A stretch of DNA of 48,643 nucleotides from an uncultured Solibacteraceae bacterium (GTDB taxonomy: Bacteria; Acidobacteriota; Vicinamibacteria; Vicinamibacterales; SCN-69-37): NCBI GenBank assembly GCA_964517075.1, contig CAZFAT010000062.1, positions 1-48,643 on the forward strand, read 5' to 3'. Below the pieces are notes generated by a model. That model saw only the letters and a list, made by a program, of their open reading frames with translations. It had not been told where the DNA came from and searched no databases. The first letter of the stretch is position 1; every line of letters begins with the position of its first letter. The translations under genes and the position numbers were made by a program. This document shows, in pieces, positions 2,825 to 42,577 of this stretch.

Positions 2825-2898
2825 GTAGTTCTCGGTGCTCGGTTCTCGGTTCTGGCTCCCGGTTGCCGACCACCGAAAACCGATGACCGAAAACCAAC
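2825..2898. repeat. heptamer-periodic hairpin element A (GTTCTCG / ACCGAAA type)
   Basis: Left arm GTTCTCG GTGCTCG GTTCTCG GTTCTGG (2828-2855). Right arm CACCGAA AACCGAT GACCGAA AACCAAC (2871-2898). The arms pair in register (2828 with 2894 ... 2850 with 2872). It lies between the stop of the 2904-3836 gene and the SD/start of the 1921-2805 gene. Confidence 0.8.
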
Positions 2899-2903
2899 GT
2901 GTC

Positions 2904-3836
2904 TTACAACCCCTTCAGCCAGATATTCCTGAACTCCACCTTCATCGGCGGCCCCGAGTGCAGTTGCAGGCCGATCAGGCCCTTCATCGACCGGTTCGCC
3001 GCGTCATCGTCCACGAAGGCGGCCATGACGCGGCCGTTGAGGATGTGGATCAGCACCGTACCGCGCGCGATGACGTGGAACTGGTTCCAGTCGTTCTGCT
3101 TGATGTGCGCCTGGAGCGCCGCGCCGTCCTCGAGGGCGGCGAGCTGGCCGCGCGGACCAGGCGCCGGCGCACCCGCGGCCGGCGGCGTCTGGCCGCGCTG
3201 TCCCGCCGGCGGCTGGTTCAGGCCGACGTAGCCGAGCGTGCCGCGCGGCGCGAGGAACGCGCGCCCGCGCTCCTCATAGAGCATCCCCGTGTATTGATTG
3301 TTGAAGTCGATGTCCGCCTGGTACCCCTTCAACACCCACTTGGCGACCTCGGGCATCTCGACGCTTCGGTACTGCACGCCCGTGTTGCCGCCGCTGATCC
3401 GGAACTCGACCTTCAGCTCGAAGTCCGCCGGCTCGCCGCCACGCCAGACGATGAAGGTGTTGGGCTTGACGACCTTCTCCGGCGTGCTCTCACCGGTGAT
3501 GGCGCCGTTCTCCACGCGCCAGAACTGGGGATCGCCATCCCAGCCGGCGAGCGTCTTGCCATTGAAGATGGGCTTGAAGCCGCTCTGGTCGGTGAAGGGA
3601 ATCGGCGCGCCGCCGCGGCCGCCGCCCCCGTCCCCGCCGCCGCGACGGCCTCCCCGGGCGCCTCGACCCGCGTCCTGATCCTGCCCGGCGGCCGATGCCG
3701 GAGCCGCGCCCTGATCCGGCGCGGCCGCGGCCGACGCCTCGTCAGTACTCAGGAGCGAGCCCGACCACCCGGCCGTCAGCCCGACGGCAACGGCTGCCCC
3801 GATCGCAAGTCGACGAGTGCGCGGTAAGTGCCCCAT
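2904..3836 (-). CDS. secreted DUF1080 (3-keto-disaccharide hydrolase-like) domain protein
   Basis: C-terminal 230 aa match the DUF1080 pattern ([15 protein letters not shown]...[11 protein letters not shown]...[17 protein letters not shown]...[23 protein letters not shown]). I use the internal ATG at 3836 ([20 protein letters not shown], signal/Tat-like) because GGAGGAAG lies 7 nt upstream. The track ORF extends to 3968. Confidence 0.8.
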
Positions 3837-3915
3837 GGCTGCTTCCTCCGAAGTCAGCCGCGGACGCGGCTGGAATGGGCCGGAAATGTGCCGGAGAGCA
3901 TAACATGCGGGTTGC

Positions 3916-4680
3916 GTGTCCTCGACCACACCCGTTGCCCGGCCCACTCGCGTCCAGCTGCTGGTCACGTGCCTCGTCGATCGGCTCTACCCGGACACGG
4001 GCATCGCCGTGGCGACCGTGCTCGAACGGCTCGGCCTCGAGGTCCACTGCCCGCCGGCGCAGACCTGCTGCGGCCAGCCGGCGTTCAACGCCGGTTTCAC
4101 CGACGAAGCCCGGGCCCTCGCCCGCCACACCATCGACGTGCTCTCCGAACGCGACGATCCGATCGTCATTCCGTCCGGATCCTGCGGCGACATGGTGATC
4201 CACCAGTACGAAGCGCTCCTGGCCGACGAGCCGGCCTACGCCGAGCGCGCCCGCGCGGTGGCGCACCGGACCCACGAGTTCACGCAGTTCCTGGTGAACG
4301 TGCTGGGCGTGATGGACGTCGGCGCCTTCTCGCGCGGCACCATCGCATATCACGCCTGCTGTCACGGGCTGCGCGGTCTTGGGGTCAAGGACGAGCCGGT
4401 GGCGCTGCTCAGTCACGTCCAGGGCGCCACCCTCTGCCCGCTCGCGGAGAGCGACGTCTGCTGCGGTTTCGGCGGATTGTTCGCCATCAAGATGGCGAAC
4501 ATTTCGTCGGCCATGCTCGCGCGAAAGCTTGCCAGCATCCAGCAGGCGCAGCCTGGCGCCGTGGCGGTGACCGACGTCAGCTGTCTCATGCACATGGCGG
4601 GCGGACTCCGCCGGGCCGGCAGCCCGGTCGAGGTGCGTCATATCGCCGACATCCTCGCCGACTCGCTCCCACCGGCATGA
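3916..4680 (+). CDS. lutA: L-lactate utilisation protein LutA ((Fe-S)-binding CCG-domain oxidoreductase)
   Basis: 254 aa with [24 protein letters not shown] and CCGFGG motifs typical of LutA/YkgE. GTG start. TGA overlaps the ATG of the next gene (ATGA at 4677-4680). Confidence 0.85.
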
Positions 4681-6137
4681 TCGCCCCCGTGTCGTTCCAC
4701 CGGCGCGCGGAAGAGGCGCTGGGCAACGCCCGGCTGCGCGGCGCGCTCCGAAGCGTCAGCTCGCGCGTGCTGGCCTCGCGGGCCGCGGCGCTCGAGGAAC
4801 TGCCGTCGGCCGATGGCTGGCGCGATCACGCCCGGCGCATCCGGGCCCACACACTGGCGCGCCTCGACACCTACCTCGACCAGTTCATCGTCGCGGTCGA
4901 GGCCCGGGGCGGCCACGTCCACTACGCGCGGACGGCCGACGATGCCGTGCGGTACGTGTGCGACCTCGCGCGGGCGCGCGGGTTGCGGCTGGCGGTGAAG
5001 TCGAAGTCGATGATCAGCGAGGAGATCCTGCTGAACCATCACCTCGAACAGGCGGGCGTCCGCGTCGTCGAAACCGATCTCGGCGAGTTCGTGGTCCAGC
5101 TCGCCGGCGAGCATCCGTCGCACATCGTGATGCCGATCATCCACAAGACGAAGGACGACGTGGCGGAGCTGTTCCGGCGCCAACTGGGCGCCACCGCCGA
5201 GGACCTGGCGGACGTCGAACGCATGACGCAGTTCGCGCGCCGCATCCTCCGCACCGAGTTCCTGCACGCCGACCTCGGCGTCAGCGGCGTCAATTTCGGC
5301 GTCGCCGAGACCGGCAGCCTCTGCATCGCGACGAACGAGGGCAACGGCCGGCTGGTGACATCGCTGCCGCGCGTGCACGTGGCGATGATGGGCATCGAGC
5401 GGCTGGTGCCGACGCTGCCCGACCTGGCCGTGATGCTGCAGGTGCTGGCCCGGAGCGCCACCGGCCAGCGCCTCACGGTCTACACGAACATCATCAACGG
5501 CCCGAGGCCCCGCGGCGAAGCCGACGGCCCGGAGGAACTGCACGTCGTCCTGCTCGACAACGGCCGATCGCGCGTCCTCGGATCCGAACTGGCGGAGATT
5601 CTGTACTGCATCCGGTGCGGCGCGTGCCTGACCGCGTGTCCCGTCTATCAGCAGATTGGCGGGCACGCCTACGGCAGCATCTACTCCGGCCCCGTCGGCG
5701 CCGTGCTGACGCCCGCGCTGAAGGGTGTCGCCGACGCGGTCGACCTGCCGCACGCGAGCAGCCTGTGCGGCGCGTGCCGCGAGGTCTGCCCCGTGCGGAT
5801 CGACATCCCGCGCATGCTGCTGGCGCTGCGCGCGGACCCGGCGTCCGTCACGGCCACGCCCCGCTGGATCCGCCTCGGCATGCGCCTGTACGCGTGGCTG
5901 GGCACACGGCCGAGGCTGTTCCGGACAGCCGGCCGCGTGGCGGCGGCCGCGACGAGACTCACGGCGCGCGACGGCTGGATCCGCCGGCTCCCCGGCCCCT
6001 TGCGCGGATGGACGACGACGCGGGACTTTCCCGCGATGGCAGGTCGGTCCTTTCAGCAGCGTTGGGCCGATCGGACACCCAGGCGGTCGGCGTCGGGCAT
6101 GGCGGAGCCGCCGACGGATGCCGGGCGGCGCGAATGA
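4677..6137 (+). CDS. lutB: L-lactate utilisation iron-sulfur protein LutB
   Basis: In-frame ATG at 4677 inside the 769-aa track ORF. The sequence [25 protein letters not shown]..., the ferredoxin motif CIRCGACLTACPVY and a second CGACREVCPV cluster match LutB/YkgF. The first 283 aa of the track ORF overlap lutA out of frame and are rejected. Confidence 0.85.
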   Translation: MIAPVSFHRRAEEALGNARLRGALRSVSSRVLASRAAALEELPSADGWRDHARRIRAHTLARLDTYLDQFIVAVEARGGHVHYARTADDAVRYVCDLARARGLRLAVKSKSMISEEILLNHHLEQAGVRVVETDLGEFVVQLAGEHPSHIVMPIIHKTKDDVAELFRRQLGATAEDLADVERMTQFARRILRTEFLHADLGVSGVNFGVAETGSLCIATNEGNGRLVTSLPRVHVAMMGIERLVPTLPDLAVMLQVLARSATGQRLTVYTNIINGPRPRGEADGPEELHVVLLDNGRSRVLGSELAEILYCIRCGACLTACPVYQQIGGHAYGSIYSGPVGAVLTPALKGVADAVDLPHASSLCGACREVCPVRIDIPRMLLALRADPASVTATPRWIRLGMRLYAWLGTRPRLFRTAGRVAAAATRLTARDGWIRRLPGPLRGWTTTRDFPAMAGRSFQQRWADRTPRRSASGMAEPPTDAGRRE

Positions 6138-6832: not shown

Positions 6833-6843
6833 CGATTGAATCC

Positions 6844-9762: not shown

Positions 9763-9935
9763 CCAGGCGGCCGGCCGGGCCGCGCCCCCTTGGCCAGGCC
9801 CCGGCGGCGCCGGGGGCTATAATGATGGACGTGACTGACCGCTCTGACCTCCGCTGTTGTCGGTGCTTCACGGGCCGCCATCGGAGGCACGCGTCTACGA
9901 GCCAGGGTTAGTCGCAGGCCGCAGGTGCTTTCCGG

Positions 9936-9972
9936 GCCCGGAACGGCTGTTCGTTCCGGGCTCTTTTCTTTT
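9936..9972 (+). terminator. intrinsic terminator-like hairpin in the 5' leader of the CysO-MoeZ fusion gene
   Basis: 10-bp stem GCCCGGAACG (9936-9945) / CGTTCCGGGC (9952-9961) and a 6-nt loop, followed by TCTTTTCTTTT (9962-9972). It ends 18 nt before the ATG at 9991. Confidence 0.6.
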
Positions 9973-9990
9973 CCGTCCAGGGACATCGAC

Positions 9991-11450
<1,460 letters not shown>

Positions 11451-11454
<4 letters not shown>

Positions 11455-12804: not shown

Positions 12805-12839
12805 TGTCAGGTCGGGTGGCTGAGGAACACCCCGGAAGC

Positions 12840-14538: not shown

Positions 14539-14666
14539 CATTGACGATTGGTTGATTGGGAGATTGAGGATTGGATTGACGATTGACTCATTGCCGATCG
14601 ATGCCGGTTTCAATCGTCAATCGCACAAATCCAATCCTCAATCACCGAATCAGCAAATCGTCAATG
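14539..14666. repeat. heptamer-periodic hairpin element B (GATTGNN / CAATCNN type), 128 nt
   Basis: The left arm 14539-14587 pairs with the right arm 14616-14666 (14539 with 14666 inward, about 40 Watson-Crick pairs, few mismatches, one U:G at 14552/14653). ATTG recurs every 7-8 nt. It lies 7 nt after the ilvD stop and 34 nt before the ilvB ATG. Confidence 0.85.
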
Positions 14667-18106: not shown

Positions 18107-18168
18107 GAGTTCAGTTCGGGGGTCTCGACAGCTACCGGAGACCGAAGACCGGCGACCGAAAACCGCCT
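18107..18168. repeat. heptamer-periodic element C (short hairpin plus GACCGAA array)
   Basis: GGTCTC (18121-18126) pairs with GAGACC (18138-18143). An exact 7-nt array follows: GACCGAA GACCGGC GACCGAA AACCGCC (18141-18168), then a pyrimidine tract. It starts 9 nt after the ilvC stop. Confidence 0.6.
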
Positions 18169-19421: not shown

Positions 19422-19429
19422 CCATCTGC

Positions 19430-19645
19430 CTATCGGCTATTGGCTATTGGCTATCGCGATTGAGTTATTGGGCTATTGAACGGTTATTGGGCTATTGATT
19501 GGGTTATTGGAGGATTGGGTTATTGGACAATTTGGCTATTGATGGGCGAGTCGCTGATTCGCGACTGCGCGCTTCAGCGACTACCAATAACCCGATCAAT
19601 AGCCCAATAACTCAATCGCGATAGCCAATAACCAATAGCCGATAG
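19430..19645. repeat. heptamer-periodic hairpin element D (GGCTATT / AATAGCC type), 216 nt with a 50-bp outer stem
   Basis: 19430-19479 is the reverse complement of 19596-19645 with a single mismatch (C19444/A19631). TTATTGG-type units recur every 7 nt. A nested GC-rich hairpin spans 19549-19582. It fills the whole gap between the convergent stops. Confidence 0.9.
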
Positions 19646-20101
19646 CTAGATGCGACCGATAGCCGCCATCAGTTCCTCGACATCCGGCTGTTCGGGGATG
19701 TCATACAGCCGGATCCATTTGATGGTCCCTTCCTTGTCTATGACAAAGATGGCTCTTTCCGCGATGCCGTCGTCGCGCATCACTCCGTAGCTCGCGGCGG
19801 CCTGGCCGCGGGGGTGGAAGTCGCTCAGCAGATCGAACGAGATGCCGCCGAGGGCGTCGGCCCAGGCGCGCTTCGCGGGTGAGGCGTCGGTGCTGATCGC
19901 CAGCACGTGCGTGTCCAGCGCCGCGAACCGGGGCTGCTCGCGCTCGTACGTCTGCATCTGCACCGCACAGACCGGCGTGAACGCCAGCACGTGAAACGCC
20001 AGCACTACCGTCTTCTTCCCACGGAAGTCCGTGAGGCGGACCGTGTGTCCCTGGTGGCTGAGCAGCGCAAAGTCAGGAGCGGCCGTTCCGACCGGCAGCA
20101 T
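19646..20101 (-). CDS. peroxiredoxin (AhpC/TSA family)
   Basis: 151 aa from the internal ATG at 20101 ([18 protein letters not shown]...[18 protein letters not shown]). The peroxidatic Cys sits in FTPVC. The longer track ORF (to 20353) runs into the aquaporin gene and is rejected. Confidence 0.85.
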
Positions 20102-24045: not shown

Positions 24046-24097
24046 TTCTATAATCAATCTGTCCGGCCGTGACGGCCGGGCCAGACAGGATTGTCAG

Positions 24098-26533: not shown

Positions 26534-26539
26534 TTCCGC

Positions 26540-26610
26540 CAATCGTCAATCGACCAATCATCAATCGTCAATTCAAATCATCAATGAATCGATCGCCAAT
26601 CATCAATTCC
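26540..26610 (+). repeat. one-armed heptamer array E (CAATCNN units), homologous to the right arm of element B
   Basis: CAAT recurs at 26540, 26547, 26555, 26562, 26569, 26582, 26597 and 26604. It shares the exact 13-mer CAATCGTCAATCG with 14611-14623 and a near-identical tail (AAATCATCAATGAA vs AAATCGTCAATGAA). No complementary arm is present. It lies between the clpA stop and the grpE start. Confidence 0.75.
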
Positions 26611-28019: not shown

Positions 28020-30308
28020 TTATCGCCCAATCACCCTCAGCCCCGCGACCGACCAGAGTTGTCCACCCTGCGACGTGGTCAACGTCAGTGTCACGCGATC
28101 GCCGACCACGCCGTCAGGCAGCGGGACGAGGACCGGCGCGCGCCGCAGATCCAGGAGGATGCCGCGCGCCGCGAAGCCGGCGGTGTCGCCCTCCCAGACG
28201 ATCGTCTTGCCACCCCCGGCGTCACCGACCGCCACCTGCAGGCGCTTCGGGTAATCGTAGGTGTACGGACCGAGGTCCAGCTCGAGGCGCGTCAGTGGTC
28301 CGGAGGCTTGAAGCACGAGATCGAGGCGCGCCCCCGCGGCCGGCGTGCCGGAGTGCCACCGCGTGTCGGGCCGGCCGTCGGTGATCAGCGGCAGGAGGTC
28401 GCGGCTGGCGTTCGCGCTGATCGCGGCGATCGGCACCGGGGTCCCCTCCAGCGGCGGCAGCGGCCGCTCCGGCAGCCTGTACATCGGACCGTCGTCGGTC
28501 GCGCCCATCCGCTCGGCGCCGGGCTGTTCGGCGATGAACGCTTCCGTGGTCCCGGAGGGATCCCGTCCGCGGTGCACGAACACGAGCACACCGCCGTACT
28601 GGCGCAGCACGTCGAGGGCCACGCGATCGTGGCTGGCGAGGGCGTTCCGCAGAGGAAAGTAGTGCGGCGGCGCGTAGCCGCTGAAGCCGTTCACGAGCGG
28701 CACGCGGTGGCCCACGGCACGCAGCATCGCCGCGGTTTCAGCAAAGACGTCCGCCATCGGCAGTTCGAGCACGGCGGTGGATCCGGCACGCGCGCTGGCG
28801 GACAGATCGAGCGGCGCCGGCACCGACGCGGTCGGCATCCGCGGCACCCAGCCTTCGAGGGTAATCACCACCGCGAGCACGGCGACAATCGGCGCGAGTC
28901 CGGCCCGGCCGTTCGAGAGCCGGGCGAAGGCAAGGGCGGCGAACTGCGACAGGCAGAGCACGAACAGCATGGCGAACCGGGCGGGGACGCGAAGCGCGCG
29001 GCCGCCGGGCAGGTCCATGACCCAGAGGTACGGCGCGCGCGGCCAGAAGACTTCGCCGAAGGCCCGCGCCACGGGACCCAGCGCGAGGATGAGCATGACG
29101 ATGGCGGCCGCCCCGTAGAAGAGGAAAACGGATCGTCGGCGCCAGCCCTGACGGGTGCGCGGATCGGCCAACCACGCCACCGCCAAGAGGCACACGACGA
29201 TGAACAACGGTTTTCCCGCCCGTGTCATCGACACGGGGACGCCGAAGGGCGACGCGTGCCAGGGGCCGAGCCACATGGTCAGGAGCACGGCCTCGGCGAG
29301 GTACGCGCCGACAAGGGCCACCCCGATGCGCCAGCGTGACCAGCGTGTGCGGCCAGCGGCCCGCCAGGCCATGAATCCGCCGGCCAGCGATAACGCCATG
29401 ATCACCAGGCCCGGATACAGCTCACCCTCTTGCCTGGGCGTCAGGGTCCAGAACGCGGGCAGCCAGGCGGTGCGCGACACCCACAGGCCGCTCAGGTCCG
29501 CGGCAAACTGGCTGATTTCACCGGGATCGCGCGCGAGACCGAGCGCGCCCTGACGCTGGATGTAGCCGATCAGGACCGGCGCCATGGCGAGCGACGCCAC
29601 GGCCAGGACGCCGCTGATGGCGATCCAGAGCCGCCACGACCGGGCGAACCACAGCATCCACAACCCGACGAGCACGCCGAAGTACATCAGGAAATAGCCG
29701 CTCGTCAGGCCGTTGAGCAGCCAGCACACGCCCGCCAGCGCGAGGAATCGCGCGCGCGGCGACTCCAGGTAGCGGTGCAGGCCGAGCAGGCAGAGCGGCA
29801 TCCAGCAGGACCACAGCACCTGCAGGTGGGGCAACTGCGCCGCGCGATACGGGTTGAAGCCGAACGCGAGCCCGGCCAGCAGCGCCGCGTCATGGCGTCC
29901 GGTGAGCCGGTGCGCCAACGCATGCGCGGCCAGAGCGGCGGCCGGAAACGACGCGAGAAATGCCACGTTGTAAGCCACGACGTGGCTCGCGCCCGCCCAC
30001 TGGAGCGGCGTGGTGAGCGGCGTCAACGCCAGGAGCGTTTCCGACAGAGCAAACGCCCCGGGCGTGGGAAAGAAAATCGGCGCGTTCCACCAGGCCGGCG
30101 TGAGCGGAACCGCGTGGGCGTTCCACCAGAAGATCCACGCGTTCAGAGCGGGATCGCCCGCGTCGAACGGGAGCCGCGTGCCCAGGGCGCCGAGGAGCGG
30201 CCAGCCGTAGACCAGCGCGAGAACGACGTACAGGGCCGAGACCCGCGTCCAGGGCGATCGAATCCACTGACGAGAGCGAGCCCGCGTCTGGTCCGCTCCG
30301 GCGTCCAT
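28020..30308 (-). CDS. polytopic membrane protein (GT-C-like) with C-terminal discoidin/F5-8 type C-like domain
   Basis: The ATG at 30308 (ATGA overlap with the upstream gene) gives MDAGADQTRARSRQW..., with an LPFDAGDPALNAWIFWW first-loop acidic motif and many TM segments. The C-terminal 150 aa (ISANASRDLLPLITDGRPDTRWHSG...) look like a galactose-binding/discoidin fold. The upstream 375 aa of the 1137-aa track ORF overlap the next gene out of frame and are rejected. Confidence 0.7.
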   Translation of the reverse strand: MDAGADQTRARSRQWIRSPWTRVSALYVVLALVYGWPLLGALGTRLPFDAGDPALNAWIFWWNAHAVPLTPAWWNAPIFFPTPGAFALSETLLALTPLTTPLQWAGASHVVAYNVAFLASFPAAALAAHALAHRLTGRHDAALLAGLAFGFNPYRAAQLPHLQVLWSCWMPLCLLGLHRYLESPRARFLALAGVCWLLNGLTSGYFLMYFGVLVGLWMLWFARSWRLWIAISGVLAVASLAMAPVLIGYIQRQGALGLARDPGEISQFAADLSGLWVSRTAWLPAFWTLTPRQEGELYPGLVIMALSLAGGFMAWRAAGRTRWSRWRIGVALVGAYLAEAVLLTMWLGPWHASPFGVPVSMTRAGKPLFIVVCLLAVAWLADPRTRQGWRRRSVFLFYGAAAIVMLILALGPVARAFGEVFWPRAPYLWVMDLPGGRALRVPARFAMLFVLCLSQFAALAFARLSNGRAGLAPIVAVLAVVITLEGWVPRMPTASVPAPLDLSASARAGSTAVLELPMADVFAETAAMLRAVGHRVPLVNGFSGYAPPHYFPLRNALASHDRVALDVLRQYGGVLVFVHRGRDPSGTTEAFIAEQPGAERMGATDDGPMYRLPERPLPPLEGTPVPIAAISANASRDLLPLITDGRPDTRWHSGTPAAGARLDLVLQASGPLTRLELDLGPYTYDYPKRLQVAVGDAGGGKTIVWEGDTAGFAARGILLDLRRAPVLVPLPDGVVGDRVTLTLTTSQGGQLWSVAGLRVIGR

Positions 30309-32230
30309 CAGTTCGTCCCCGGCTGGAAGACGAGCGTCGGCGCTGGCTCGGGCGGCACGGCGCGCAGACCATCGTCGACGCCCGTGACGATGACCGCCGG
30401 GTTCGGAGGTGGATCGCGCAGGTCGTACAGGAACAGATGGCCGGGCTCGTCGTAGACCGCGAGCGGCGGTCCTTCCAGCTTCGAGACGGTTCCAGAACCG
30501 TCGAACCGGCGCACGACCTCGGGAAGCTCCCACGGCTCGACGAGGAGGTAAGGGTGCGCGCCGTGGCTGTCGAGCCACGCCACGGCCCGGTCGAGCCACC
30601 CGGGGTCCAGTTGGTCGTACCGCAGGGTCATCCGGCTGCCGTAGTAGCGGACCGTCCCGCTGTGCTGCATGGAGATGATGACGCTGTTGGGCGGCGTCAG
30701 GCGCTCGACCATCCGGGCGGCCGTGATGTAGCGCCGTTCCCCGCGCCATTGATCGAACACCGGCACATCCGCGACGACACCGGCCTGAAAGAGTAGCTGC
30801 AGCACGACACCGGCCACCACGGCGGCGCGCGCGAAGCGGCCGCCCGGCTGCCAGATGCCCATCGCGACGATGCCGGCACCGACCATCATGAACGGCCAGG
30901 CCGTCAGGAGGAATCGGAGATACCACCAGGCGTCGAAGACGAGATACGCGACGTATTGCGCCCAGGTCGAGAAGACGAACAGGGCCGCGATGACCACGCG
31001 GCGCCGTTCGCGAAGGTCCGGCCAGAGCCAGGAGAACGGCAGGGCCAGCGCGATGAGGCCGGCCACCGCCACCGGCGAGTGCGTCTGCACCAGCCAGATG
31101 AGATAGCGCCGGACGTTGGGACGGATGTGTTCCCACGCGAAGAGGTCGCTCAACCGACCGTAGCCTGACAGGAAGGGCGATCCGTACAAGTCGTTGTTGA
31201 TCGCGCCGACCGCGATGACACCTGGCAGCACGCCGAGGAAGAACAGCACGGCGAGCCGGAACGCACGGCCGCGCGACTCGCGCCTGAAGAGATCGGGCAG
31301 GTAGTAACACCCCGCAAAAGCGGCGAGTGGCACGAGGTTGGGCCGGATCATCACCGCGACGCCGCTCAGCACACCGGCGGCGAGGGCGCTTCTCGCGCCC
31401 GGGCCCGTCAGAAGGTAGAAAGCCGCCGCCCACATGGCCGCCACGGGCACGTCGGTCATGGGCGGCATCAGCATGAACAGCACGGCCGGACTCGTGGCGA
31501 CGAGCGCCGCGCCGATCAGTCCAGCGCCGGGTGAGCCCAGCCGGCAGCCGATGCCGTAGGTGGCCAGCACGAGCAGGGCGCCGAGGAGCGGCACGACGTA
31601 GAACAGCGCGTCGTGGCCGCCGATGGCCTTGAAGACCGCGAAGATCAGCGGCAATCCCGGTGAGTAGATCGGCACGATCGACGGGATGTCGTCACGAAAC
31701 GTCGCCTTGTAGCCGAGCGGCATGAACGTGTCGCGGCCGCGCGGCCACGGCACCTCGCCGGCAAACGGCTGCGCGATCGCCAGCCGGCCCTCGAGCCACA
31801 GGTCGGCCTGGCTCACGTAGCCGTAGGCGTCCGCGCCGCCCGCGCTCTTCGTCGCGAAAATGGCGCCCAGCAGGAAGACGCCGGCTGCCATGGCGATGGT
31901 GGCGGTCCGCGGCGACGGCAGCCATCGGGCCACGCCGCGGTCCCATGCGCGAAGGAGCCGTTCGAACGAGTGGAGGAAATTGCGCCAGGCCGGGAGAGGT
32001 CGCCCGCCGAGGGCGACAAACGCGATGGCGCCGGCCGCGACGACCCACAGGGCGCGCAGCGGCCGATGTGCGCGGATCTCGACGCCGGAGATTCGCACCT
32101 CGAAACCGCCGGTCACGTAGAGCAGCGGCACTGCGGCGAGGCCGATCAGGACCAGCGTGAACGCCGCGTGCCGCAGCACGCGGCGCGTGCGGCCTTCAGG
32201 CCGGCTGGCCGGCAGGTCCAAGGGCGTCAT
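30308..32230 (-). CDS. GT-C fold glycosyltransferase (ArnT/PMT-like), paralog 2
   Basis: The ATG at 32230 (ATGA overlap with the upstream paralog) gives MTPLDLPASRPEGRTRRVLRHAAFTLVLIG. It shares GADAYGYVSQADLWLEG, YSPGLPL, IRPN, LYGSPFLSGYGR, YLRFLLTAWPF and SGTVRYYGSRMTLRYD blocks with the adjacent gene. At least 10 TM segments. Confidence 0.75.
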   Translation of the reverse strand: MTPLDLPASRPEGRTRRVLRHAAFTLVLIGLAAVPLLYVTGGFEVRISGVEIRAHRPLRALWVVAAGAIAFVALGGRPLPAWRNFLHSFERLLRAWDRGVARWLPSPRTATIAMAAGVFLLGAIFATKSAGGADAYGYVSQADLWLEGRLAIAQPFAGEVPWPRGRDTFMPLGYKATFRDDIPSIVPIYSPGLPLIFAVFKAIGGHDALFYVVPLLGALLVLATYGIGCRLGSPGAGLIGAALVATSPAVLFMLMPPMTDVPVAAMWAAAFYLLTGPGARSALAAGVLSGVAVMIRPNLVPLAAFAGCYYLPDLFRRESRGRAFRLAVLFFLGVLPGVIAVGAINNDLYGSPFLSGYGRLSDLFAWEHIRPNVRRYLIWLVQTHSPVAVAGLIALALPFSWLWPDLRERRRVVIAALFVFSTWAQYVAYLVFDAWWYLRFLLTAWPFMMVGAGIVAMGIWQPGGRFARAAVVAGVVLQLLFQAGVVADVPVFDQWRGERRYITAARMVERLTPPNSVIISMQHSGTVRYYGSRMTLRYDQLDPGWLDRAVAWLDSHGAHPYLLVEPWELPEVVRRFDGSGTVSKLEGPPLAVYDEPGHLFLYDLRDPPPNPAVIVTGVDDGLRAVPPEPAPTLVFQPGTN

Positions 32231-34083
32231 GGGGCAAACACCAGCGTCGGCGCCGGCACCGGCAAAGCGGCGCGGAGGCGGTCCGTGAAACGTTCCGTCA
32301 CAACCACCGGGGGCGCGATCAGGCCGCCGGCCGGCTCCGGGGCCGACAGATCGTACAGGCGGATCGTCTCGTGGCTGCGGTACTCGAGCATCGGGGGCCT
32401 GCCGATCCGCTGCGCACGGCGTTCGCCGGAGAACCGCGCCGCAAAGGGCTCGATCTCCCATTCCTCGAGCACCGCGTATACCGGCACGCCCCGCGCGGTG
32501 AGCCACTCGACGCCCCGGTCAAGCCAGCCCTCGTCGAGGATGTCATACCGAATCGTCATGCGGCCGCTGTAGTACCGGAGGCTGCCGCTGTGAATCATCG
32601 CGAGCACGGCGCTGTTAGGCGGCGTCGCGTCGCGCACGAGCCGGGCCACGGCAGCGAACCGCCGGTCGCTCTGCCACGCCCTGAACGCGCCCTCCTGCGC
32701 GGCCTGGCGCCAGCACGTGATGCCCAGTGCCAGCACGAAACCTGCGGTGACGAGGGTCAGCGACGGCCGATCGCGCCGGGTCAACCCCACCGCCACCACA
32801 CCCACGCCAAGCATCACGAAGGGCCAGGTTGGGAGGAGGAACCGAAGGTAGCGGAAGTTGTCGAACACGAGATACGCGAAATACTGCACCCAGGTCACGA
32901 CCACGAACGCGGCAATCATCGCGAGGGCGCGACGGTCCGCGATGTGGGGCCAGACGCGGCGAAGCGGGACCAGGACGACCGAAAGTCCCACGAGTCCGAT
33001 CACGGTTTGCGTGTCCACGAACCACGAGAAGTAGTTGCGGATGTTCGGCAGGATGTTCGCCCAAGCGAACTGATCGGAGAACCGTCCGTAACCCGAGACG
33101 AACGGCGAGCCGTACAGCGACTGGTAGATGGCGGCAATCGCCAGACCGGACGCGACGAGAGGCACACCGAACGCGAGACCGGAGGCGATGCGATGACGCC
33201 GGCCGGCGCCGGGAGGAACCTGCCGACAGACGGCGTAGAGGCCCGTGACCGCGGCGACCAGGAAGAGGTTGGGCCGGATCAGCATCGCAACGCCAGCCGC
33301 GATGCCGGCCGCCGCGGTCGCGGGGACGCCCCCCACGAGCAGGAAGTAGATCGCCACCGTCCAGGCGCCGGCCGTGGCGACGTCGCTCATCGGCACGACG
33401 AGGTGCAGCAGGAACACCGGGCTGGTCGCCACGAGCCAGGCGGCGATCAGGCCGGCCCGCGACGAGCCCAGGCGGCGACCGATGCTCCAGGTGGCCAGCA
33501 CCATCAGGCCGCCGAACAGCGGCACGACCGCGAACAGCGCCTCCTGCCCGCCCACGGCCTTCGCCGCCGCCATGAGCAGCGGGAGGCCCGGCGAGTAGGT
33601 CGGGACGTTCGCCCACCGGCCCTCCTCCTCCACGGGGCGGTAGCCGAGGGGCGCGAAGCTCCATCGCTTCGAGGGCCAGGGCACGTGCTCGGCCCAGGGC
33701 TGCGGCACGTGCAGGTTGCCGTCCAGCCACAGGTCCGCCTGGCTGACGTAGCCGTACTGATCCGGCCCGTTTGCGGCGGTGGTGTTGTAAGCGATGCCGG
33801 CCGCAACGACGGCGCCCGACATCGCAAGGACCAGGCCGCGATCGCCCAACGGGGCGACGGCCCGGGTCCAGAGCCGCTCGGATCGCTCGACGCCGTTGGC
33901 GACCACGAAGACGGTCAGCGCCAGCGCGGCGAGGATCAGGGGCCGGAGCGGCTCGTAAGAGGTGACGGTGGACCCGAAGAGTTGGAACTCGAACCCGCCG
34001 TGGAAGGCGATGACGAAGGCCCAGACCAGGGCGGCGACGGCCAGCGCCAGGGCCGCCACGCTGATCGAGCGTCTTGATGTCAC
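32227..34083 (-). CDS. GT-C fold glycosyltransferase (ArnT/PMT-like), paralog 1
   Basis: 618 aa, GTG start. Blocks GPDQYGYVSQADLWLDG, YSPGLPL, IRPN, LYGSPFVSGYGR, YLRFLLPTWPF and SGSLRYYSGRMTIRYD are collinear with the downstream paralog. Confidence 0.75.
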   Translation of the reverse strand: MTSRRSISVAALALAVAALVWAFVIAFHGGFEFQLFGSTVTSYEPLRPLILAALALTVFVVANGVERSERLWTRAVAPLGDRGLVLAMSGAVVAAGIAYNTTAANGPDQYGYVSQADLWLDGNLHVPQPWAEHVPWPSKRWSFAPLGYRPVEEEGRWANVPTYSPGLPLLMAAAKAVGGQEALFAVVPLFGGLMVLATWSIGRRLGSSRAGLIAAWLVATSPVFLLHLVVPMSDVATAGAWTVAIYFLLVGGVPATAAAGIAAGVAMLIRPNLFLVAAVTGLYAVCRQVPPGAGRRHRIASGLAFGVPLVASGLAIAAIYQSLYGSPFVSGYGRFSDQFAWANILPNIRNYFSWFVDTQTVIGLVGLSVVLVPLRRVWPHIADRRALAMIAAFVVVTWVQYFAYLVFDNFRYLRFLLPTWPFVMLGVGVVAVGLTRRDRPSLTLVTAGFVLALGITCWRQAAQEGAFRAWQSDRRFAAVARLVRDATPPNSAVLAMIHSGSLRYYSGRMTIRYDILDEGWLDRGVEWLTARGVPVYAVLEEWEIEPFAARFSGERRAQRIGRPPMLEYRSHETIRLYDLSAPEPAGGLIAPPVVVTERFTDRLRAALPVPAPTLVFAP

Positions 34084-34092
34084 GGAGAAACG

Positions 34093-34126
34093 ACGTCGGG
34101 TGTATTTTCGAAAACACGCCCGACGT
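34093..34126 (-). terminator. intercistronic hairpin between speA and the GT-C genes
   Basis: ACGTCGGG (34093-34100) pairs with CCCGACGT (34119-34126). The stem continues through TGT/ACA and the TTTTCGAAAA palindrome. On the minus strand it is followed by CGTTTCTCC and the GTG start at 34083. It may attenuate rather than terminate. Confidence 0.4.
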
Positions 34127-34137
34127 AATTTCGGAAC

Positions 34138-36087
<1,950 letters not shown>

Positions 36088-36140
36088 AGCGCAACATCAT
36101 AAGACATCGGCCGCGTGTTTTCTTGGGCAGGCGGAAAAAA

Positions 36141-37445
36141 TCACCGGCTCAGTCCGGCGCCGAAGGTGACGCGCGTGCCGGCGCCGCGACCGTGCGCGAC
36201 CGTCAGCCCCATCCGGAACACGGTCGCGGCGAGCCAGACGCTCGCGCCGCCGCCCACCCGCAGTGGCTGGTCGCGAAAGGCCTGGCCATGGTCGTACGCA
36301 GTGCCGGCGTCGACAAAGACGCTCACCCCGACCTTGCCGGCCGACAGGGCTGCCGACAGCGGCACGCGCAGCTCGAGCGAGCCGGCCACCAGAATGTCAC
36401 CCGCAAACGCCCCCGGCTCGAACCCGCGAAGGTTGGTGTCGCCGCCGAGCAGGAACGTGAGATACGGCGGCAGCGATCGATTCGCCTGATCTCGCCGGGC
36501 GCTGGCGACCAAAACCGACTGTCCGAGCAGGCCGACATACGCGCGCCCGTCGACAGTCGACAGCGTGGCGGGCAGACCGCCTGAGGCGAAATGCACGCGC
36601 TCCACCGCGGCCCGGGCGAACACCGCGTTTCGCGGCAGGGCCGGATCGAGGCGCGTGTCCAGCGTGGCCTCGGCCTGGATGGAGCGAAGCCGGTCCGCTT
36701 CCCCGGCAAACAAGACCCGCTGCCAGGCAGCGCCCCCGTCGACTCGAAGCGGACCCACAGCCCGCCCAGCCCGCGCCCACAGCCGCCGGCGATCGTCGTT
36801 CTCGTCGAACGCTGGATGGCGCCGGCGATCGATCGAGACGCCGGCCTCCACCCGGCTGAGCAGCCCGGCGACGAACGTCCGGTCGAACTCCACCGCCGCC
36901 TGCTTGAAGCCGCCCCAGGTGAGCGGGAACGACACGCGGCTGCGCCTGCCAGCCATCCCGACGTACGCCATCCGCACGCCGTAGGTCGCGCCGTAGCCAT
37001 CCTCGATGTGGAACACCGGCAGGACGAGCAGGTTCGTCAGCGCCCGCCGCCGCACCACTCTCGCCGGCCCGCCCTCGTCCGGCACCTCGATGTCGACCGG
37101 ACCTTCGTTGACGATGATGACAAGGACGATGCGCGAAGGATCGGCGATGGAGGCGAAGCGCTTGAGCACCTGGACGTCCTGGAAGCGCCCGGTTCGTCGC
37201 AGCCGATCGGCGACCTCGTCCAGCGTGGTGGCCGTGAACGGCGCGCCAACGGCCACGCCGGCGAGCCGCAGCAGCTCATCGTCAGGCGTGATCTGATTGC
37301 CGTGCAGGCGGACCTCGGCGATGACCTCGGCGGTCGGCGGAGGCGACGGCGGCGCTCCCGCCTGCGCGGCGCCTCCCGCCTCCGCCAGCCTGACGACGCC
37401 GGCCAGGACGCCGACGAGGGCCAGCGCCGCCGCGAGGCGGCTCAC
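36141..37445 (-). CDS. Omp85/BamA-family outer-membrane barrel with a single POTRA-like domain
   Basis: The GTG at 37445 (GTGA overlap with the upstream gene) gives the signal peptide VSRLAAALALVGVLAGVV. A POTRA-like segment (EVRLHGNQITPDDELLRLAGV...) and a C-terminal surface-antigen barrel (LGGDTNLRGF, SLELRVPL, VFVDAGTAY) follow. Confidence 0.75.
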   Translation of the reverse strand: MSRLAAALALVGVLAGVVRLAEAGGAAQAGAPPSPPPTAEVIAEVRLHGNQITPDDELLRLAGVAVGAPFTATTLDEVADRLRRTGRFQDVQVLKRFASIADPSRIVLVIIVNEGPVDIEVPDEGGPARVVRRRALTNLLVLPVFHIEDGYGATYGVRMAYVGMAGRRSRVSFPLTWGGFKQAAVEFDRTFVAGLLSRVEAGVSIDRRRHPAFDENDDRRRLWARAGRAVGPLRVDGGAAWQRVLFAGEADRLRSIQAEATLDTRLDPALPRNAVFARAAVERVHFASGGLPATLSTVDGRAYVGLLGQSVLVASARRDQANRSLPPYLTFLLGGDTNLRGFEPGAFAGDILVAGSLELRVPLSAALSAGKVGVSVFVDAGTAYDHGQAFRDQPLRVGGGASVWLAATVFRMGLTVAHGRGAGTRVTFGAGLSR

Positions 37446-38449: not shown

Positions 38450-38517
38450 CGGACTGTCCCCGTCTCAGGCTGGCGCGACCGTCCCGTGCAAGGCGGCACC
38501 ATGATTAGACGTCAGAC

Positions 38518-38573
38518 CTGACGGGCAGGTTGCAGGACCCTCTGGCTTCCAACTTCCAACCTGCCCGCGTCAG
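38518..38573 (-). terminator. hairpin 5 nt downstream of the PhoX-like gene
   Basis: CTGACGGGCAGGTTG (38518-38532) pairs with CAACCTGCCCGCGTCAG (38557-38573): 15 bp with a 2-nt bulge. The loop contains CTTCCAA CTTCCAA. No clean U-tract. Confidence 0.45.
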
Positions 38574-38578
38574 TTCCC

Positions 38579-39928: not shown

Positions 39929-39969
39929 CGCATCCTCCTTTCGTCCACCCTGCGGCCTGCCCGAACCGA

Positions 39970-40296
39970 CTAGTACAACCCGCCTTCTTTGGTCTGAGAG
40001 ATCACGACGAGCATCGCGACAACTCCGCCACCAATCACGTACGGCCATGGCGTTTTCCAGAAAGACCTGCTTCCGGTCGCTTGCGCCGCGACCGGCGCGG
40101 CTCGGCGCAGGTCCGGGCGCTTCGAGGTCTTGGCCATCTCGGCGATCCCGGCGGATCTGGCGGAGAAGTCGTATTCGATCGTCGCCGGTGCCGCGGGCGG
40201 TACCGGCGCTGGCGATTTGGCTTCGGCACCCGCCGCGAACGCAGGGCGCGCCCCGAGCCACGTGACGAGGACGACGAACAGCACCACACGCTTCAT
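39970..40296 (-). CDS. small hypothetical exported protein with C-terminal hydrophobic anchor
   Basis: The ATG at 40296 is preceded by AAGGGAG. Signal peptide MKRVVLFVVLVTWLGARPAFA, a Pro/Ala-rich middle and a C-terminal PWPYVIGGGVVAMLVVISQ helix. No recognisable family. The rest of the 390-aa track ORF is rejected. Confidence 0.5.
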   Translation of the reverse strand: MKRVVLFVVLVTWLGARPAFAAGAEAKSPAPVPPAAPATIEYDFSARSAGIAEMAKTSKRPDLRRAAPVAAQATGSRSFWKTPWPYVIGGGVVAMLVVISQTKEGGLY

Positions 40297-40440
40297 GACC
40301 TGCTCCCTTCGGGTGAGCCCTGAGCGGCGACCTGTTTCTACCACGAGACGGGACGGCCGCGCTCCAGCCGGCGGGTTGCGCCGGCATCGGCCGGGCCGAA
40401 GCCCCGCGTTATGATCGACGGGCTCACTCAAGGAGTCCTT

Positions 40441-41229
40441 ATGCGCGCGATTCGGTCCACCCTGACGCTGTTTCTGCTCCTCATGCTCCCGGTCATGGCC
40501 TCCGCCGCCATTCAGACGAGAGAGATCGAATTGAAGCAGGGCGGCACGGTCCTGAGAGGATTCATCGCGTGGGACGATGCGTTCACCGAGCCCCGGCCGG
40601 GGGTACTCGTCGTTCACGAGTGGTGGGGGCATGAAGAGCACGCCCGCGCGCAGGCGCGCCGGCTGGCCGAAGCCGGGTATGTCGGATTCGCGCTCGACCT
40701 CTACGGCGGCGGCAAGGTCGCCGCGCACCCCGCCGATGCCGAGAAGTTCATGATGGAAGCGGTGAAGGATCCCGCCGCGATCCGCGCGCGGTTCGATGCC
40801 GCGCTGGCGGCGCTCAAGGCCGACTCGCACGTGGACCCGGCACGCATCGCCGCCATTGGCTACTGCTTTGGCGGGGGCGTCGTGCTCAACATGGCCCGCG
40901 CGGGCCATCCGGATCTCGATGCCGTCGTGAGCTTCCACGGCGTCCTGGCCACACAGACGCCGGCACAGAAAGGCGCCGTCCACGCGCGCGTGCTCGTTCT
41001 GCACGGCGCGGACGACCCGATGGCGCCCGCGGCTGACGTCGAGGCGCTCCGCAAGGAACTGGACGCCGCCGGCGCCACCTATGCCATCGTCACCTACCCG
41101 GGCGCGAAGCATGCCTTCACCAACCCCAAAGCCGACAGCCACGGCATGGCCGCGCTGAGCTACAACGCCGACGCGGACAAGCGATCGTGGGCGGCGATGC
41201 TTGGACTGTTGAAGGACATCTGGCGCTGA
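40441..41229 (+). CDS. dienelactone hydrolase family protein (secreted)
   Basis: The ATG at 40441 is preceded by AAGGAG. Signal peptide MRAIRSTLTLFLLLMLPVMASA. Motifs GVLVVHEWWG, the nucleophile elbow GYCFGG and LHGADDP. Confidence 0.85.
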   Translation: MRAIRSTLTLFLLLMLPVMASAAIQTREIELKQGGTVLRGFIAWDDAFTEPRPGVLVVHEWWGHEEHARAQARRLAEAGYVGFALDLYGGGKVAAHPADAEKFMMEAVKDPAAIRARFDAALAALKADSHVDPARIAAIGYCFGGGVVLNMARAGHPDLDAVVSFHGVLATQTPAQKGAVHARVLVLHGADDPMAPAADVEALRKELDAAGATYAIVTYPGAKHAFTNPKADSHGMAALSYNADADKRSWAAMLGLLKDIWR

Positions 41230-41245
41230 CGGTGGCTCGAGGTTT

Positions 41246-41316
41246 GTTCTCGGTTCTCGCTTCTCGGTTCCGGGAGCATGTCAGTACCGAAAACCCGGAA
41301 CCGAAAACCGACAACG
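41246..41316. repeat. heptamer-periodic hairpin element F (GTTCTCG / ACCGAAA type)
   Basis: Left arm GTTCTCG GTTCTCG CTTCTCG GTTCCGG (41246-41273). Right arm TACCGAA AACCCGG AACCGAA AACCGAC (41285-41312). The pairing register is 41253 with 41315 inward to 41274 with 41294. It lies between convergent stops (41229 and 41324). Confidence 0.75.
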
Positions 41317-41323
41317 CCGCACG

Positions 41324-42475
41324 CTACAGCAGCAGCGCCTCCACCCGATGCGCCTGCACCATGTCCTCATCGCCGGACCACTTGAAGATCGTGAAGCGGC
41401 CGTCCTGGGAAGCGACGAGGGCGGTGGCGTCCGGTTGATCCTGGACGAACTGCGCAGCGGAGAAGTGGCGCGTGCCGCCAAGCTGGTAGGGATTGACGAC
41501 TGTCACGACGGCGCCTTCGACCGGCTCGCTCAGCAGCACGCGCTCGACCGGCGGACGCCCGCGGCGGCGGGTAATCTTCGCGCCAAAGGCCATCAACTGG
41601 TAGCGCTCGGTCAGAAGCGTGGCGCCGTCCACGGCCGTCAGGCCGGCCAGGGCGTCGACCGCGCGCCGTAAATCCTCCTGCCATTCGTGCGAGGCCTCGA
41701 CCCGGCCGGGAGCCTCAATGAGCGCGGACAATTCCGAGTACGGCGGCGAGACCGCGTACGTCACCGGGTGGACGATGGACTCGGGCCACTCGCGGTTGTC
41801 GGAGGGAATCACCAGCAGCGCGCCGCCGCGCTGGTGCGCGCGCATCGAGGCCGCAATCTGGACGAGCACATTCATCGAGTCCGGCACGAGTCCAGGCAGA
41901 TCGACACCCAGCAGTGAGGCGACAACGCCCGGGCAATCCGGCCGGCGGGCGCGCCCCTCGTCCACGACCTTGATGGCGTTGCCTTCGAGCACGACCATGT
42001 TGACGAACTTGCCGAACGACTCGCTGCGATGTTTGATGACCAGCAGTCCGGAGGTCACGACTTCGAGCACGAAGCACAGCGCCGGCAGGCGGCGCGTCGT
42101 CCCCCAGACCCGCAGCTCGCCGCCGAAGTCACGCCAGACGCCCAGATGGATGCCCGGACGCTCGACCGCGGGCGCGAGCTTCGCGAGGGCCGGGGCCGAG
42201 AGCGGGAGCGGACGCTCGAACGTCAGGGGACTGCCGGCCGGATCGGGCGGCACGAAGGCCAGCGAGATGCGCGGCAGCACCCCCTCCTCGCGCCGGAGGC
42301 TGGCCCAGAACGCCGCGTCCACGATGGCCTCGATGGCGTCGGCATCCGGCTCGGGCGCCAGATCCTGCCGTCCCTGGGCCCGCGCCGCCTCCAGGTGACG
42401 CGCGAAGTGCTCGCGCGCACGGAGCGCCACCGCGTGCGCCGCCGGGTACGGTGGGGTGACGGGCGTCGTGGACAC
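41324..42475 (-). CDS. hypothetical protein with diverged C-terminal DAC (DisA_N, diadenylate cyclase-like) domain
   Basis: 383 aa, GTG start. The C-terminal half aligns by eye to DAC motifs. RGGALLVI corresponds to GALIVI. AVDGATLL...LMAFGAKI corresponds to LHDGAVII...AA. LGGTRHFSAAQF corresponds to LGTRHRAA. ATALVASQDGRFTIF corresponds to VVSEETG.IS. The N-terminal ~190 aa have no family I recognise. Confidence 0.65.
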   Translation of the reverse strand: MSTTPVTPPYPAAHAVALRAREHFARHLEAARAQGRQDLAPEPDADAIEAIVDAAFWASLRREEGVLPRISLAFVPPDPAGSPLTFERPLPLSAPALAKLAPAVERPGIHLGVWRDFGGELRVWGTTRRLPALCFVLEVVTSGLLVIKHRSESFGKFVNMVVLEGNAIKVVDEGRARRPDCPGVVASLLGVDLPGLVPDSMNVLVQIAASMRAHQRGGALLVIPSDNREWPESIVHPVTYAVSPPYSELSALIEAPGRVEASHEWQEDLRRAVDALAGLTAVDGATLLTERYQLMAFGAKITRRRGRPPVERVLLSEPVEGAVVTVVNPYQLGGTRHFSAAQFVQDQPDATALVASQDGRFTIFKWSGDEDMVQAHRVEALLL

Positions 42476-42496
42476 GGGGTCTCAGGATCTTAGATT

Positions 42497-42577
42497 AGTT
42501 TGAGTTCTGAGTCGTGAGTTCAGAGTTCCCGACTGCGACCAGAGCCTCAAGACTCATGACTCAAAACTCAGAACTAC
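42497..42577. repeat. heptamer-periodic hairpin element G (GAGTTCN / NNGACTC type)
   Basis: Left arm GAGTTCT GAGTCGT GAGTTCA GAGTTCC (42502-42529). Right arm AAGACTC ATGACTC AAAACTC AGAACTA (42549-42576). The GTTCTGAG/CTCAGAAC core pairs 42504-42511 with 42567-42574. It sits in the divergent 5' region between the DAC-like and MutS-like genes. Confidence 0.7.

Follow-up and report, generated by a model that had tools for sequence, protein, structure and literature searches.

The 48.6-kb stretch of DNA analysed here (contig CAZFAT010000062.1, ~69% G+C; referred to as the window in the rest of the text) carries housekeeping genes, and Pfam analysis of the encoded proteins recognized the products of ilvD-ilvB-ilvN-ilvC, a phosphoglycerate dehydrogenase (PGDH), AhpC, an aquaporin, a UPF0182 protein, ClpS/ClpA and GrpE. 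The closest homologues of PGDH and of a DACNV protein carry the names Vicinamibacterales or Acidobacteria. An exact look-up of two proteins of the window gave no recorded entry. Seven intergenic gaps of the window hold elements of 60-230 nt, designated A to G, that are built from tandem units of about 7 nt and that in five cases pair with an inverted copy of themselves into a long hairpin. The seven elements and their neighbours are as follows.

Element A, 2825-2899, minus strand: a GTTCTCG-type array and an inverted CGAAAAC-type array, between the stop of a 3-keto-disaccharide hydrolase gene (2904-3968, minus) and the start of a xylose-isomerase-like gene (1921-2805, minus), both assigned by Pfam.
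Element B, 14539-14666, plus strand: a GATTGNN array and an inverted NNCAATC array, between the ilvD stop (14531) and the ilvB start (14701).
Element C, 18107-18168, plus strand: a single A+C-rich array, ACCGRRN repeated 4.6 times, after the ilvC stop (18098), with a small local hairpin only.
Element D, 19423-19652, strand not applicable: GGCTATTG/CTATTGG arrays and their inverted copy, the largest hairpin, between the convergent genes for PGDH (stop 19421) and AhpC (stop 19646-19648).
Element E, 26540-26610, plus strand: a single A+C-rich CAATCNN array, between the stop of a Clp ATPase gene (26533) and the probable grpE start (ATG, 26622).
Element F, 41246-41316, strand not applicable: a GTTCTCG array and an inverted ACCGAAA array, between a dienelactone hydrolase gene (stop 41229) and the convergent DACNV gene (stop 41324-41326).
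Element G, 42497-42577, strand not applicable: a GAGTTCN array and an inverted NGAACTC array, in a 131-nt gap between the divergent DACNV gene (start 42475) and a MutS-like gene (start probably 42607, GTG).

Periodicity and position of the seven elements

Tandem Repeats Finder reported period-7 arrays in six of the seven gaps, at 2828-2864 and 2872-2895 (A), 18134-18165 (C), 19430-19478 and 19597-19646 (D), 26540-26572 (E, with periods of 7, 15 and 22 over 26539-26607), 41246-41270 and 41286-41315 (F), and 42546-42575 (G); in B it reported an irregular 7/12-nt array (14562-14587). A self-similarity scan (28-nt scanning window, at least 19 matches) agreed with this result. At a lag of 7 it returned seven regions, each within one of the named gaps and none in coding DNA, compared to zero or one region at each of the lags 4, 5, 8, 10, 11 and 13, making 7 the sole enriched lag in the window other than multiples of 3. 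The tandem ~7-nt units described in a first-pass annotation of this DNA are thus borne out by both methods. Their low G+C content (42-62% compared to ~69% for the window) is likewise confirmed. The unit types given there need one correction, as D does not consist strictly of GATTGNN but of mixed 7- and 8-nt units (GGCTATTG and CTATTGG). The statement that copies differ in primary sequence is only partly right: A and F can be aligned over their full length with a common consensus (62% mean column identity in a five-sequence alignment), so that sequence families exist. A and G both open with GGTAGTTCT, with GGTAG at their start on one strand only; the GTAG head does not occur in B or F, and in D it overlaps the stop codon TAG.

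In elements A to F the array starts 0-16 nt past a stop codon. A, B, C and E sit between genes of the same strand, and D and F fill the only two convergent gaps of the window that exceed 25 nt. Placement directly after a stop codon had been proposed for all seven elements but does not extend to G. Third-position G+C content (GC3) of the MutS-like gene goes up only from ~42604, suggesting that this gene probably starts at the GTG at 42607 and that G therefore lies in a divergent gap. A promoter-like match, TGGACA-16-TAGATT (42469-42496), ends right before the 5′ arm of G, so that G may be a 5′-untranslated-region hairpin of the MutS-like mRNA; such a match is weak, one being found where 0.8 were expected.

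The end of A is separated from the next gene start by 19 nt, and that of B from the ilvB start by 34 nt, which leaves space only for a ribosome-binding site, GAGGAG in the case of B. As no sigma-70-like promoter was found within 12-31 kb, transcription must cross the hairpins of both A and B. No U-tract follows the stem in any of the seven elements, and none was listed in the terminator scans. Ordinary stem-plus-T-tract sites do occur in the contig, one at 9934-9973 on the plus strand (a 13-bp GC-rich stem followed by TTTTCTTTTC) and one at 36142-36159 on the minus strand (a 6-bp stem followed by ATTTTTT, just after an Omp85 gene), indicating that canonical terminators exist alongside the heptamer hairpins in this organism and that the hairpins themselves are not canonical terminators. 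The terminator role implied by the first-pass annotation is therefore not upheld. Two other purposes were considered and rejected: a promoter role for the TTGAC-containing G+T arms, given zero sigma-70-like matches in 12-31 kb, and the provision of stop codons in all frames, given that GTTCTCG, CTATTGG and ATTGCGG arrays contain none.

Folding and matching of the two arms

The two longest inverted repeats of the window are those of D (I1, 61-nt arms, 93% complementary) and B (I2, 39 nt, 90%); F (I8, 22 nt, 86%) and G (I10, 24 nt, 79%) contain shorter ones. When RNA folds were compared to dinucleotide shuffles, D reached −131.4 kcal/mol (z −15.6; z −16 and −18 for the two strands), with an unbroken run of 50 pairs on the minus strand. 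About 60 extra unpaired units lie in its left arm and a GC-rich mini-hairpin at its centre. B folded at −82.5 kcal/mol (z −8.5/−8.2), A at −42.5 on the minus strand (z −4.0) and −34.8 on the plus strand (z −2.7), F at −43.3 (minus) and −38.2 (plus) kcal/mol (z −2.8/−4.0), and G with z −4.0/−3.4. The single arrays folded no better than shuffles, with z +0.1 for C and z +0.9 for E, the plus-strand RNA of which is almost unstructured (minimum free energy, MFE, −4.7 kcal/mol over 88 nt). The elements had been introduced as a family of hairpin elements; a long hairpin is present in A, B, D, F and G (5/7) but not in C and E.

Two further hairpins of the window lack heptamer periodicity. One is a near-perfect palindrome of 23+23 nt without spacer (GAAACGACGTCGGGTGTATTTTC / GAAAACACGCCCGACGTAATTTC; 34087-34132, fold z −4.8) between two minus-strand genes. 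The other, in the clpS-clpA gap (24058-24090), is a GC-rich hairpin (CTGTCCGGCC...GGCCAGACAG; z −3.7) that the close relative L081 has in common (L081:6190-6222).

Variant units follow one another in mirrored order in the two arms of the best copies, which suggests that one arm is copied from its partner or kept matched to it. Shuffling the unit order of the 3′ arm weakened the fold of D from −138.6 to −105 kcal/mol and that of B from −69.5 to −47 kcal/mol, and none of 200 shuffles reached the native value in either case. The 3′ arms of D and B are thus mirror copies of their 5′ arms, not just arrays of complementary unit types. For the B element of L091 (Acidobacteria bacterium SCN 69-37), native unit order was no better than shuffled order (90/200). 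Unit-shuffled D still folded well below dinucleotide shuffles (−105 compared to −62 kcal/mol), indicating that the repeats provide a baseline of pairing that is independent of register. The F element of a relative, L213, which is kept with a different pairing register, is a natural case of this. Since both arms are repeats, the hairpin can re-form in a new register after slippage.

Relatives, metagenomes and arm polarity

Orthologous gaps of relatives were taken from contigs encoding PGDH or DACNV homologues. Protein identity to the window is 96-97% for L081 and L213 (96% for the DACNV protein of L213), 92% for L082-L084, and 78-88% for more distant relatives that include L085, L087, L091 and L214 (88% for the DACNV protein of L214). 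Eighty loci from an ilvC scan, a gene too conserved to yield a close relative, span many phyla and were reused as a cross-phylum comparison set; several of their Acidobacteriota and Chloroflexota members have heptamer hairpins of their own, so that this set is not a clean negative control. A metagenome scan with GATTGNNGATTGNNGATTG (three GATTGNN units) returned 120 loci, of which 35 high-GC ones were analysed. A further 83 (among L093-L212, G+C <0.35) were excluded as unrelated: they are contigs of 1-6 kb and 15-30% G+C with (CCCCAAT)n at the start and (ATTGGGG)n at the end (for example L096:1-50 and L096:2672-2736), and they resemble ciliate macronuclear chromosomes of gene size whose telomeres are 7-nt repeats. 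Some of them contain telomere-to-telomere junctions with a 4-nt gap. Hairpins were called across loci by aligning each array with its reverse complement, in place of an MFE-based caller with flanks that was too noisy. The strand of flanking genes came from a phase-specific GC classifier that reproduced all annotated cases, in place of a longest-ORF (open reading frame) rule that is unreliable at high GC.

In L081 and L213 the elements are kept at the same gaps but remodelled. D measures 216 nt in the window, 335 nt in L081 and 384 nt in L082; its outer ends are conserved and its centre varies, and between L082 and L084 it differs by exactly one 16-nt unit in one arm. At 92% identity (L082-L084), B (L082:6403-6495), D and E are kept with other sequences, and C is replaced by a GC-rich hairpin. 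The C gap also holds an ordinary GC-rich hairpin in L087 and a GAAGTNN hairpin in L091, whose B and C gaps both carry GAAGTNN/NNACTTC. L082 has AGAGGTN/NACCTCT in another convergent gap. The strand and unit type of E are kept in L081:8666-8701 and L082:18395-18503, and an E orthologue is absent in L087 and L089. G is kept in L213 with several substitutions. In L214 the F gap holds a single CAAACTN array and the G gap a GC-rich hairpin. Overall, in the relatives at 78-88% identity a gap may hold a GC-rich hairpin of the ordinary kind (L087 C, L091 D, L214 G), an array of another unit, or nothing (L085, L087). An array of ~90 nt made of GGTTCYC/GGTTTTC units, with a short hairpin, follows the clpS stop in L081 (6087-6175) and is absent from the window, where 24046-24050 keeps only GTTCT, and from the outgroup L082; it is a recent gain or loss. 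Arrays are thus gained and lost between relatives whose neighbouring proteins are ~97% identical. The architecture recurs in orthologous gaps of close relatives, with changed length and register. An assembly artefact was ruled out, since the elements lie in the interior of a 48.6-kb contig and were met again in independent assemblies (L081-L084, L213).

Lag 7 occurs at 1.27 regions per 10 kb in the relatives, compared to 0-0.51 for lags 4, 5, 8, 10, 11 and 13, and at 0.33 per 10 kb in the 80-locus set, compared to at most 0.13 for other lags that are not multiples of 3 or 7. Among the relatives, array density ranges from 0 (L085, L087) to 3.5 per 10 kb (L081). In the cross-phylum set, arrays were seen in other Acidobacteriota (L001, L007, L016, L021, L026, L073), in Anaerolineae and Dehalococcoidia (L005, L057, L074) and in a Nitrospirota metagenome-assembled genome (L076), several of them as hairpins of an array plus its inverted copy. 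NNNCTGA/TCAGNNN arrays are present in Acidobacteriaceae and Dehalococcoidia loci (L026, L001, L073, L074; for example L026:1546-1598 and L026:15462-15501). The 35 high-GC metagenome loci comprise 13-15 hairpins and 20 single arrays, with a median of 4 nt between a credible stop codon and the array; by context the hairpins are co-directional in nine cases, convergent in three and divergent in none. One metagenome array begins at most ~12 nt after a tRNA-Ser gene. In a hand count over gaps of at least 40 nt in the window, L081, L082 and L091, arrays occupied 15 of 39 gaps that contain a gene 3′ end and 1 of 10 divergent gaps.

The G+T-rich arm is 5′ of its A+C-rich partner in each of the five hairpins of the window, throughout the hairpins of the Vicinamibacterales relatives if a purine-rich first arm is counted in L091 and L082, and in all 13-15 GATTGNN metagenome hairpins from high-GC loci; the mirror order was seen zero times. 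What is shared throughout Vicinamibacterales is a 5′ arm with G at least equal to C. The first-pass annotation had held that the mirror order is never seen, which is true of these sets only. Four unit families with AGC(T)-containing units at other loci (L021/L073:9208, L073:7298, L026 near 2700, and L076) have the opposite polarity, and by hand count ~13 of 17 unit families are G+T-first, so that across families the order is a tendency, not a law. Constant polarity within one family could be simply inherited, because an inverted palindrome keeps its polarity. Transcription-linked mutational skew was rejected as its cause, since the two arms of a co-directional hairpin are transcribed the same way and have opposite composition. 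Single metagenome arrays have a G+T sense strand in eight cases and an A+C sense strand in two, to which E is added.

Mismatches compatible with G:U pairing on the transcribed strand had also been proposed, and A and B do fold better on that strand (A, −40.5 on the minus strand compared to −33.2 kcal/mol; B, −69.5 on the plus strand compared to −65.6). The same is true of all five co-directional Vicinamibacterales hairpins (A, B and three in relatives), although two of the five are orthologues and two are near-copies of each other. Among 21 co-directional hairpins in all, however, the sense strand folded better in 11 and worse in 10; the proposal is thus not general and there is no general support for selection at the RNA level.

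Three features of these contigs lie apart from the elements. The plus strand of the window has a strongly positive AT skew (0.2-0.38) at 29000-34000, over a run of minus-strand genes that probably code for membrane proteins or glycosyltransferases (PMT_2 match, 30308-32506). ARAGORN called an 86-nt tRNA-Ala(GGC) at 28374-28459 (plus), which is probably a false positive, within a long minus-strand membrane-protein-like ORF without Pfam match (28020-31433). Three successive PIN-toxin/antitoxin pairs of the VapBC/PhdYeFM type stand directly upstream of ilvD in L091 (1502-3931), and are not part of the window synteny.

Candidate explanations and known element classes

We tentatively favour, at somewhat less than even confidence, the view that the elements are slippage-driven heptamer microsatellites, often self-matching palindromes beside gene 3′ ends, that probably behave like the RNA stem-loops of repetitive extragenic palindromes (REP). 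The arrays would be heptanucleotide microsatellites of the "long simple sequence repeat" class, which many bacterial genomes contain in excess, in non-coding DNA directly after genes, in which whole units would be gained or lost by replication slippage; the comparison of relatives shows such unit change. About half of the arrays are paired with their own inverted copy, whose sequence would be copied from the partner, with intra-strand template switching at the palindrome as the probable route, or matched by selection. REP and bacterial interspersed mosaic elements (BIME) of Enterobacteriaceae and Pseudomonas are multicopy extragenic palindromes after genes or between cistrons that form stem-loops without U-tracts, protect against 3′ exonucleases and give rise to differential stability within operons. 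We infer a similar functional role here: once transcribed, the hairpins would block 3′ exonucleases as 3′-end or intercistronic stem-loops, or alternatively offer double-strand processing sites, and would act not as terminators but by tuning how stable neighbouring cistrons are relative to one another. In line with this view, ordinary GC-rich stem-loops take the same gaps in distant relatives (L082 C, L087 C, L091 D, L214 G).

Several observations weigh against it. Single arrays without hairpin (C, E and 20 of the 35 metagenome loci) equal or outnumber the hairpins, so that array maintenance does not need the hairpin. Stems of 30-50 bp far exceed what exonuclease protection needs, G sits in a 5′/5′ gap, and the sense strand has no folding advantage over the 21 co-directional hairpins. 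In addition, the Vicinamibacterales relatives L085 and L087 have no arrays in 15-21 kb, showing that the elements are dispensable.

Some of these points also suit the main rival, which we consider nearly as likely and in which the elements are a neutral or selfish by-product of slippage and palindrome-templated copying where selection is weakest, in the short stretch after genes, with hairpins merely tolerated. Heptamer excess in bacteria has been attributed to polymerase slippage, as cited in two later papers (PMC4679880, PMC4692102). The rapid gain, loss and remodelling between relatives, the patchy distribution by lineage, the many single arrays, the even split of folding between strands and the variety of unit sequences all fit a by-product. 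What fits it less well is that one genome has two or three unit families that are each used at several loci (as also in the B and C gaps of L091), that G+T-first polarity is consistent, that arrays tightly abut stop codons and are rare in divergent gaps although those are long, and that array-free orthologous gaps usually hold another hairpin.

We consider it improbable that the elements are non-autonomous mobile elements, similar to REP/BIME or to miniature inverted-repeat transposable elements (MITE), copied by a transposase such as a REP-associated tyrosine transposase (RAYT) encoded elsewhere, with periodicity as an internal trait of the family. Copying would more easily account for the clpS-stop array of L081, ~90 nt of already diverged units that the window and L082 lack, than growth from nothing. 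The full-length consensus of A and F and the shared GGTAGTTCT start of A and G, GTAG being the usual REP head, also speak for mobility. A palindrome also has the same polarity in either insertion orientation, which would explain constancy within a unit family. However, comparison of the filled L081 site with the empty window site revealed no target-site duplication or defined termini, and the leftover partial unit GTTCT fits in-situ growth or deletion equally well. Lengths vary continuously (60-380 nt), many copies have a single arm, B, F and D lack the GTAG head, and no transposase was found by Pfam among the 20 proteins scanned, which come from one contig of the genome.

Also improbable, in our estimate, is a broader idea according to which high-GC soil bacteria (Acidobacteriota, Chloroflexota, Xanthomonas and others) make wide use of palindromic heptamer microsatellites as a device. 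The repeats would make the hairpin slip-tolerant and self-repairing, and the nearly universal order with the G/U-rich arm first would reflect a co-transcriptional mechanism. A protein reading ~7 nt of single strand, of the cold-shock-domain type, or Rho would then compete with folding. If true, the elements would be condition-gated switches of read-through or decay at hundreds of gene ends per genome, and the long-noted excess of 7-nt repeats in bacteria would be explained.

A further proposal, that the units are putative ~7-nt sites for a single-strand-binding protein such as a cold-shock-domain protein, whose binding to the G+U arm, the first to leave RNA polymerase, blocks the hairpin and gates read-through, is to our mind very doubtful, including its variant in which exposed C-rich single arms are Rho loading sites masked by the G-rich arm. 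This entirely speculative proposal is the only one offered that covers both the 7-nt period and the G+T-first order on both strands (5/5 in the window, 13-15 to 0 among the metagenome GATTGNN hairpins, ~13 of 17 families). The cold-shock protein CspB, as reviewed in PMC4679880, prefers T-rich sequence and occupies one heptamer per protein, and the RNA of E resembles a Rho loading site in that it is rich in C, poor in G and unstructured. The units are nevertheless very diverse and include the purine-rich AGAAGTT and AGAGGTN, four Acidobacteriaceae unit families (L021, L073, L026, L076) have the opposite polarity, and single arrays can have either strand as sense. Finally, canonical Rho-independent terminators, bidirectional in convergent gaps, would suit hairpins that stand directly after gene ends and in both convergent gaps >25 nt, as well as the GC-rich hairpins in the same gaps of relatives, but are highly improbable given stems without U-tract, ordinary terminators elsewhere in the contig, the location of A and B inside apparent operons with no space for a downstream promoter, the lack of a hairpin in C and E, and the divergent gap of G.

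Among known element classes, REP/BIME are what the elements, by analogy, most plausibly work like, although REP differ from them: REP are 20-40 nt long, conserved in sequence and not internally periodic, with GT[AG]G at the head and a link to RAYT transposases. Here the elements measure 60-230 nt, and only A and G, on one strand each, have such a motif where the palindrome starts. With MITE-type elements they share small size, intergenic location, long hairpins and presence or absence between close relatives; they differ from them by lacking terminal inverted repeats distinct from the body, by continuous length variation and by single-arm copies. Rfam returned no match to the elements at gathering score. 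A sub-threshold match (E ≤ 1) inside D to a microRNA precursor, at 32.7 bits compared to a gathering score of 70, was dismissed as spurious.

The first-pass annotation had not recognized the elements as a described class, yet heptamer arrays have precedents. Both PMC4679880 and PMC4692102 cite a 2007 finding that, of all long repeat units, those of 7 nt are the most over-represented in many bacteria. Intergenic direct repeats of TAACTGA and other heptamers occur in cyanobacteria, Beggiatoaceae and Bacteroidetes (MacGregor 2015, PMC4679880), TTTTGAA heptamers in Nostoc (bioRxiv 10.1101/2022.06.06.494920), with Calothrix likewise documented, and MTYCTGA and GGGACCG in Geobacter (PMC2700814). These have in common with our elements tandem 7-nt units, intergenic location, variable copy number, several unit types and a proposed post-transcriptional role, and the NNNCTGA/TCAGNNN units of the Acidobacteriaceae and Dehalococcoidia loci resemble TAACTGA and MTYCTGA. 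In contrast, they are direct repeats that lie mostly just upstream of start codons, with one inverted set among 170 in a Beggiatoaceae genome (PMC4679880), whereas the arrays described here abut stop codons and about half form inverted pairs.

The closest precedent is the heptameric GGGAATC repeat of two Xanthomonas genomes (Rehm 2015, PMC4692102, which also covers the GGGGA(C/T)T repeats of Nostoc). These arrays are 89-93% intergenic, lie on average 28 nt from the upstream ORF, form inverted repeats from two convergent arrays in 70-75 cases per genome, and occupy the same gaps in both species with extensive variation in length and sequence. They thus share with the present elements the 7-nt unit, a position much nearer the upstream ORF's end than the following gene, convergent pairs that can fold into stem-loops, the G-rich array being 5′ on either strand, a high-GC host, and retention in the same gaps of relatives with variable length and sequence (here B, D, E, F and G). 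The differences lie in the units, which lack GGG here (GTTCTCG, GATTGNN, CTATTGG, GAGTTCN), in the presence of several unrelated unit families in one genome, in much longer arms (as many as 61 paired nt in the window, and elements reaching 384 nt in a relative), and in the host, an acidobacterium of the Vicinamibacterales; for Acidobacteria or Vicinamibacterales, our literature search turned up no report of elements of this kind. Without G-tracts, the G-quadruplexes on which the Xanthomonas study was based, and to which this sole detailed study of heptamers tied them, cannot form here. Because architecture, position and polarity are the same, the architecture is separable from quadruplex formation, which directs attention to the hairpin or to the 7-nt period as such. 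The elements also show that many gene ends in one lineage of abundant, uncultured soil bacteria are marked by very long, fast-changing hairpins instead of ordinary terminators, with a bearing on operon annotation, metagenome assembly and strain markers, the practical value being modest for now. The element class is therefore already known, and the elements of the window are a variant of it without G-tracts, with several unit families per genome and longer arms, in a new host phylum.

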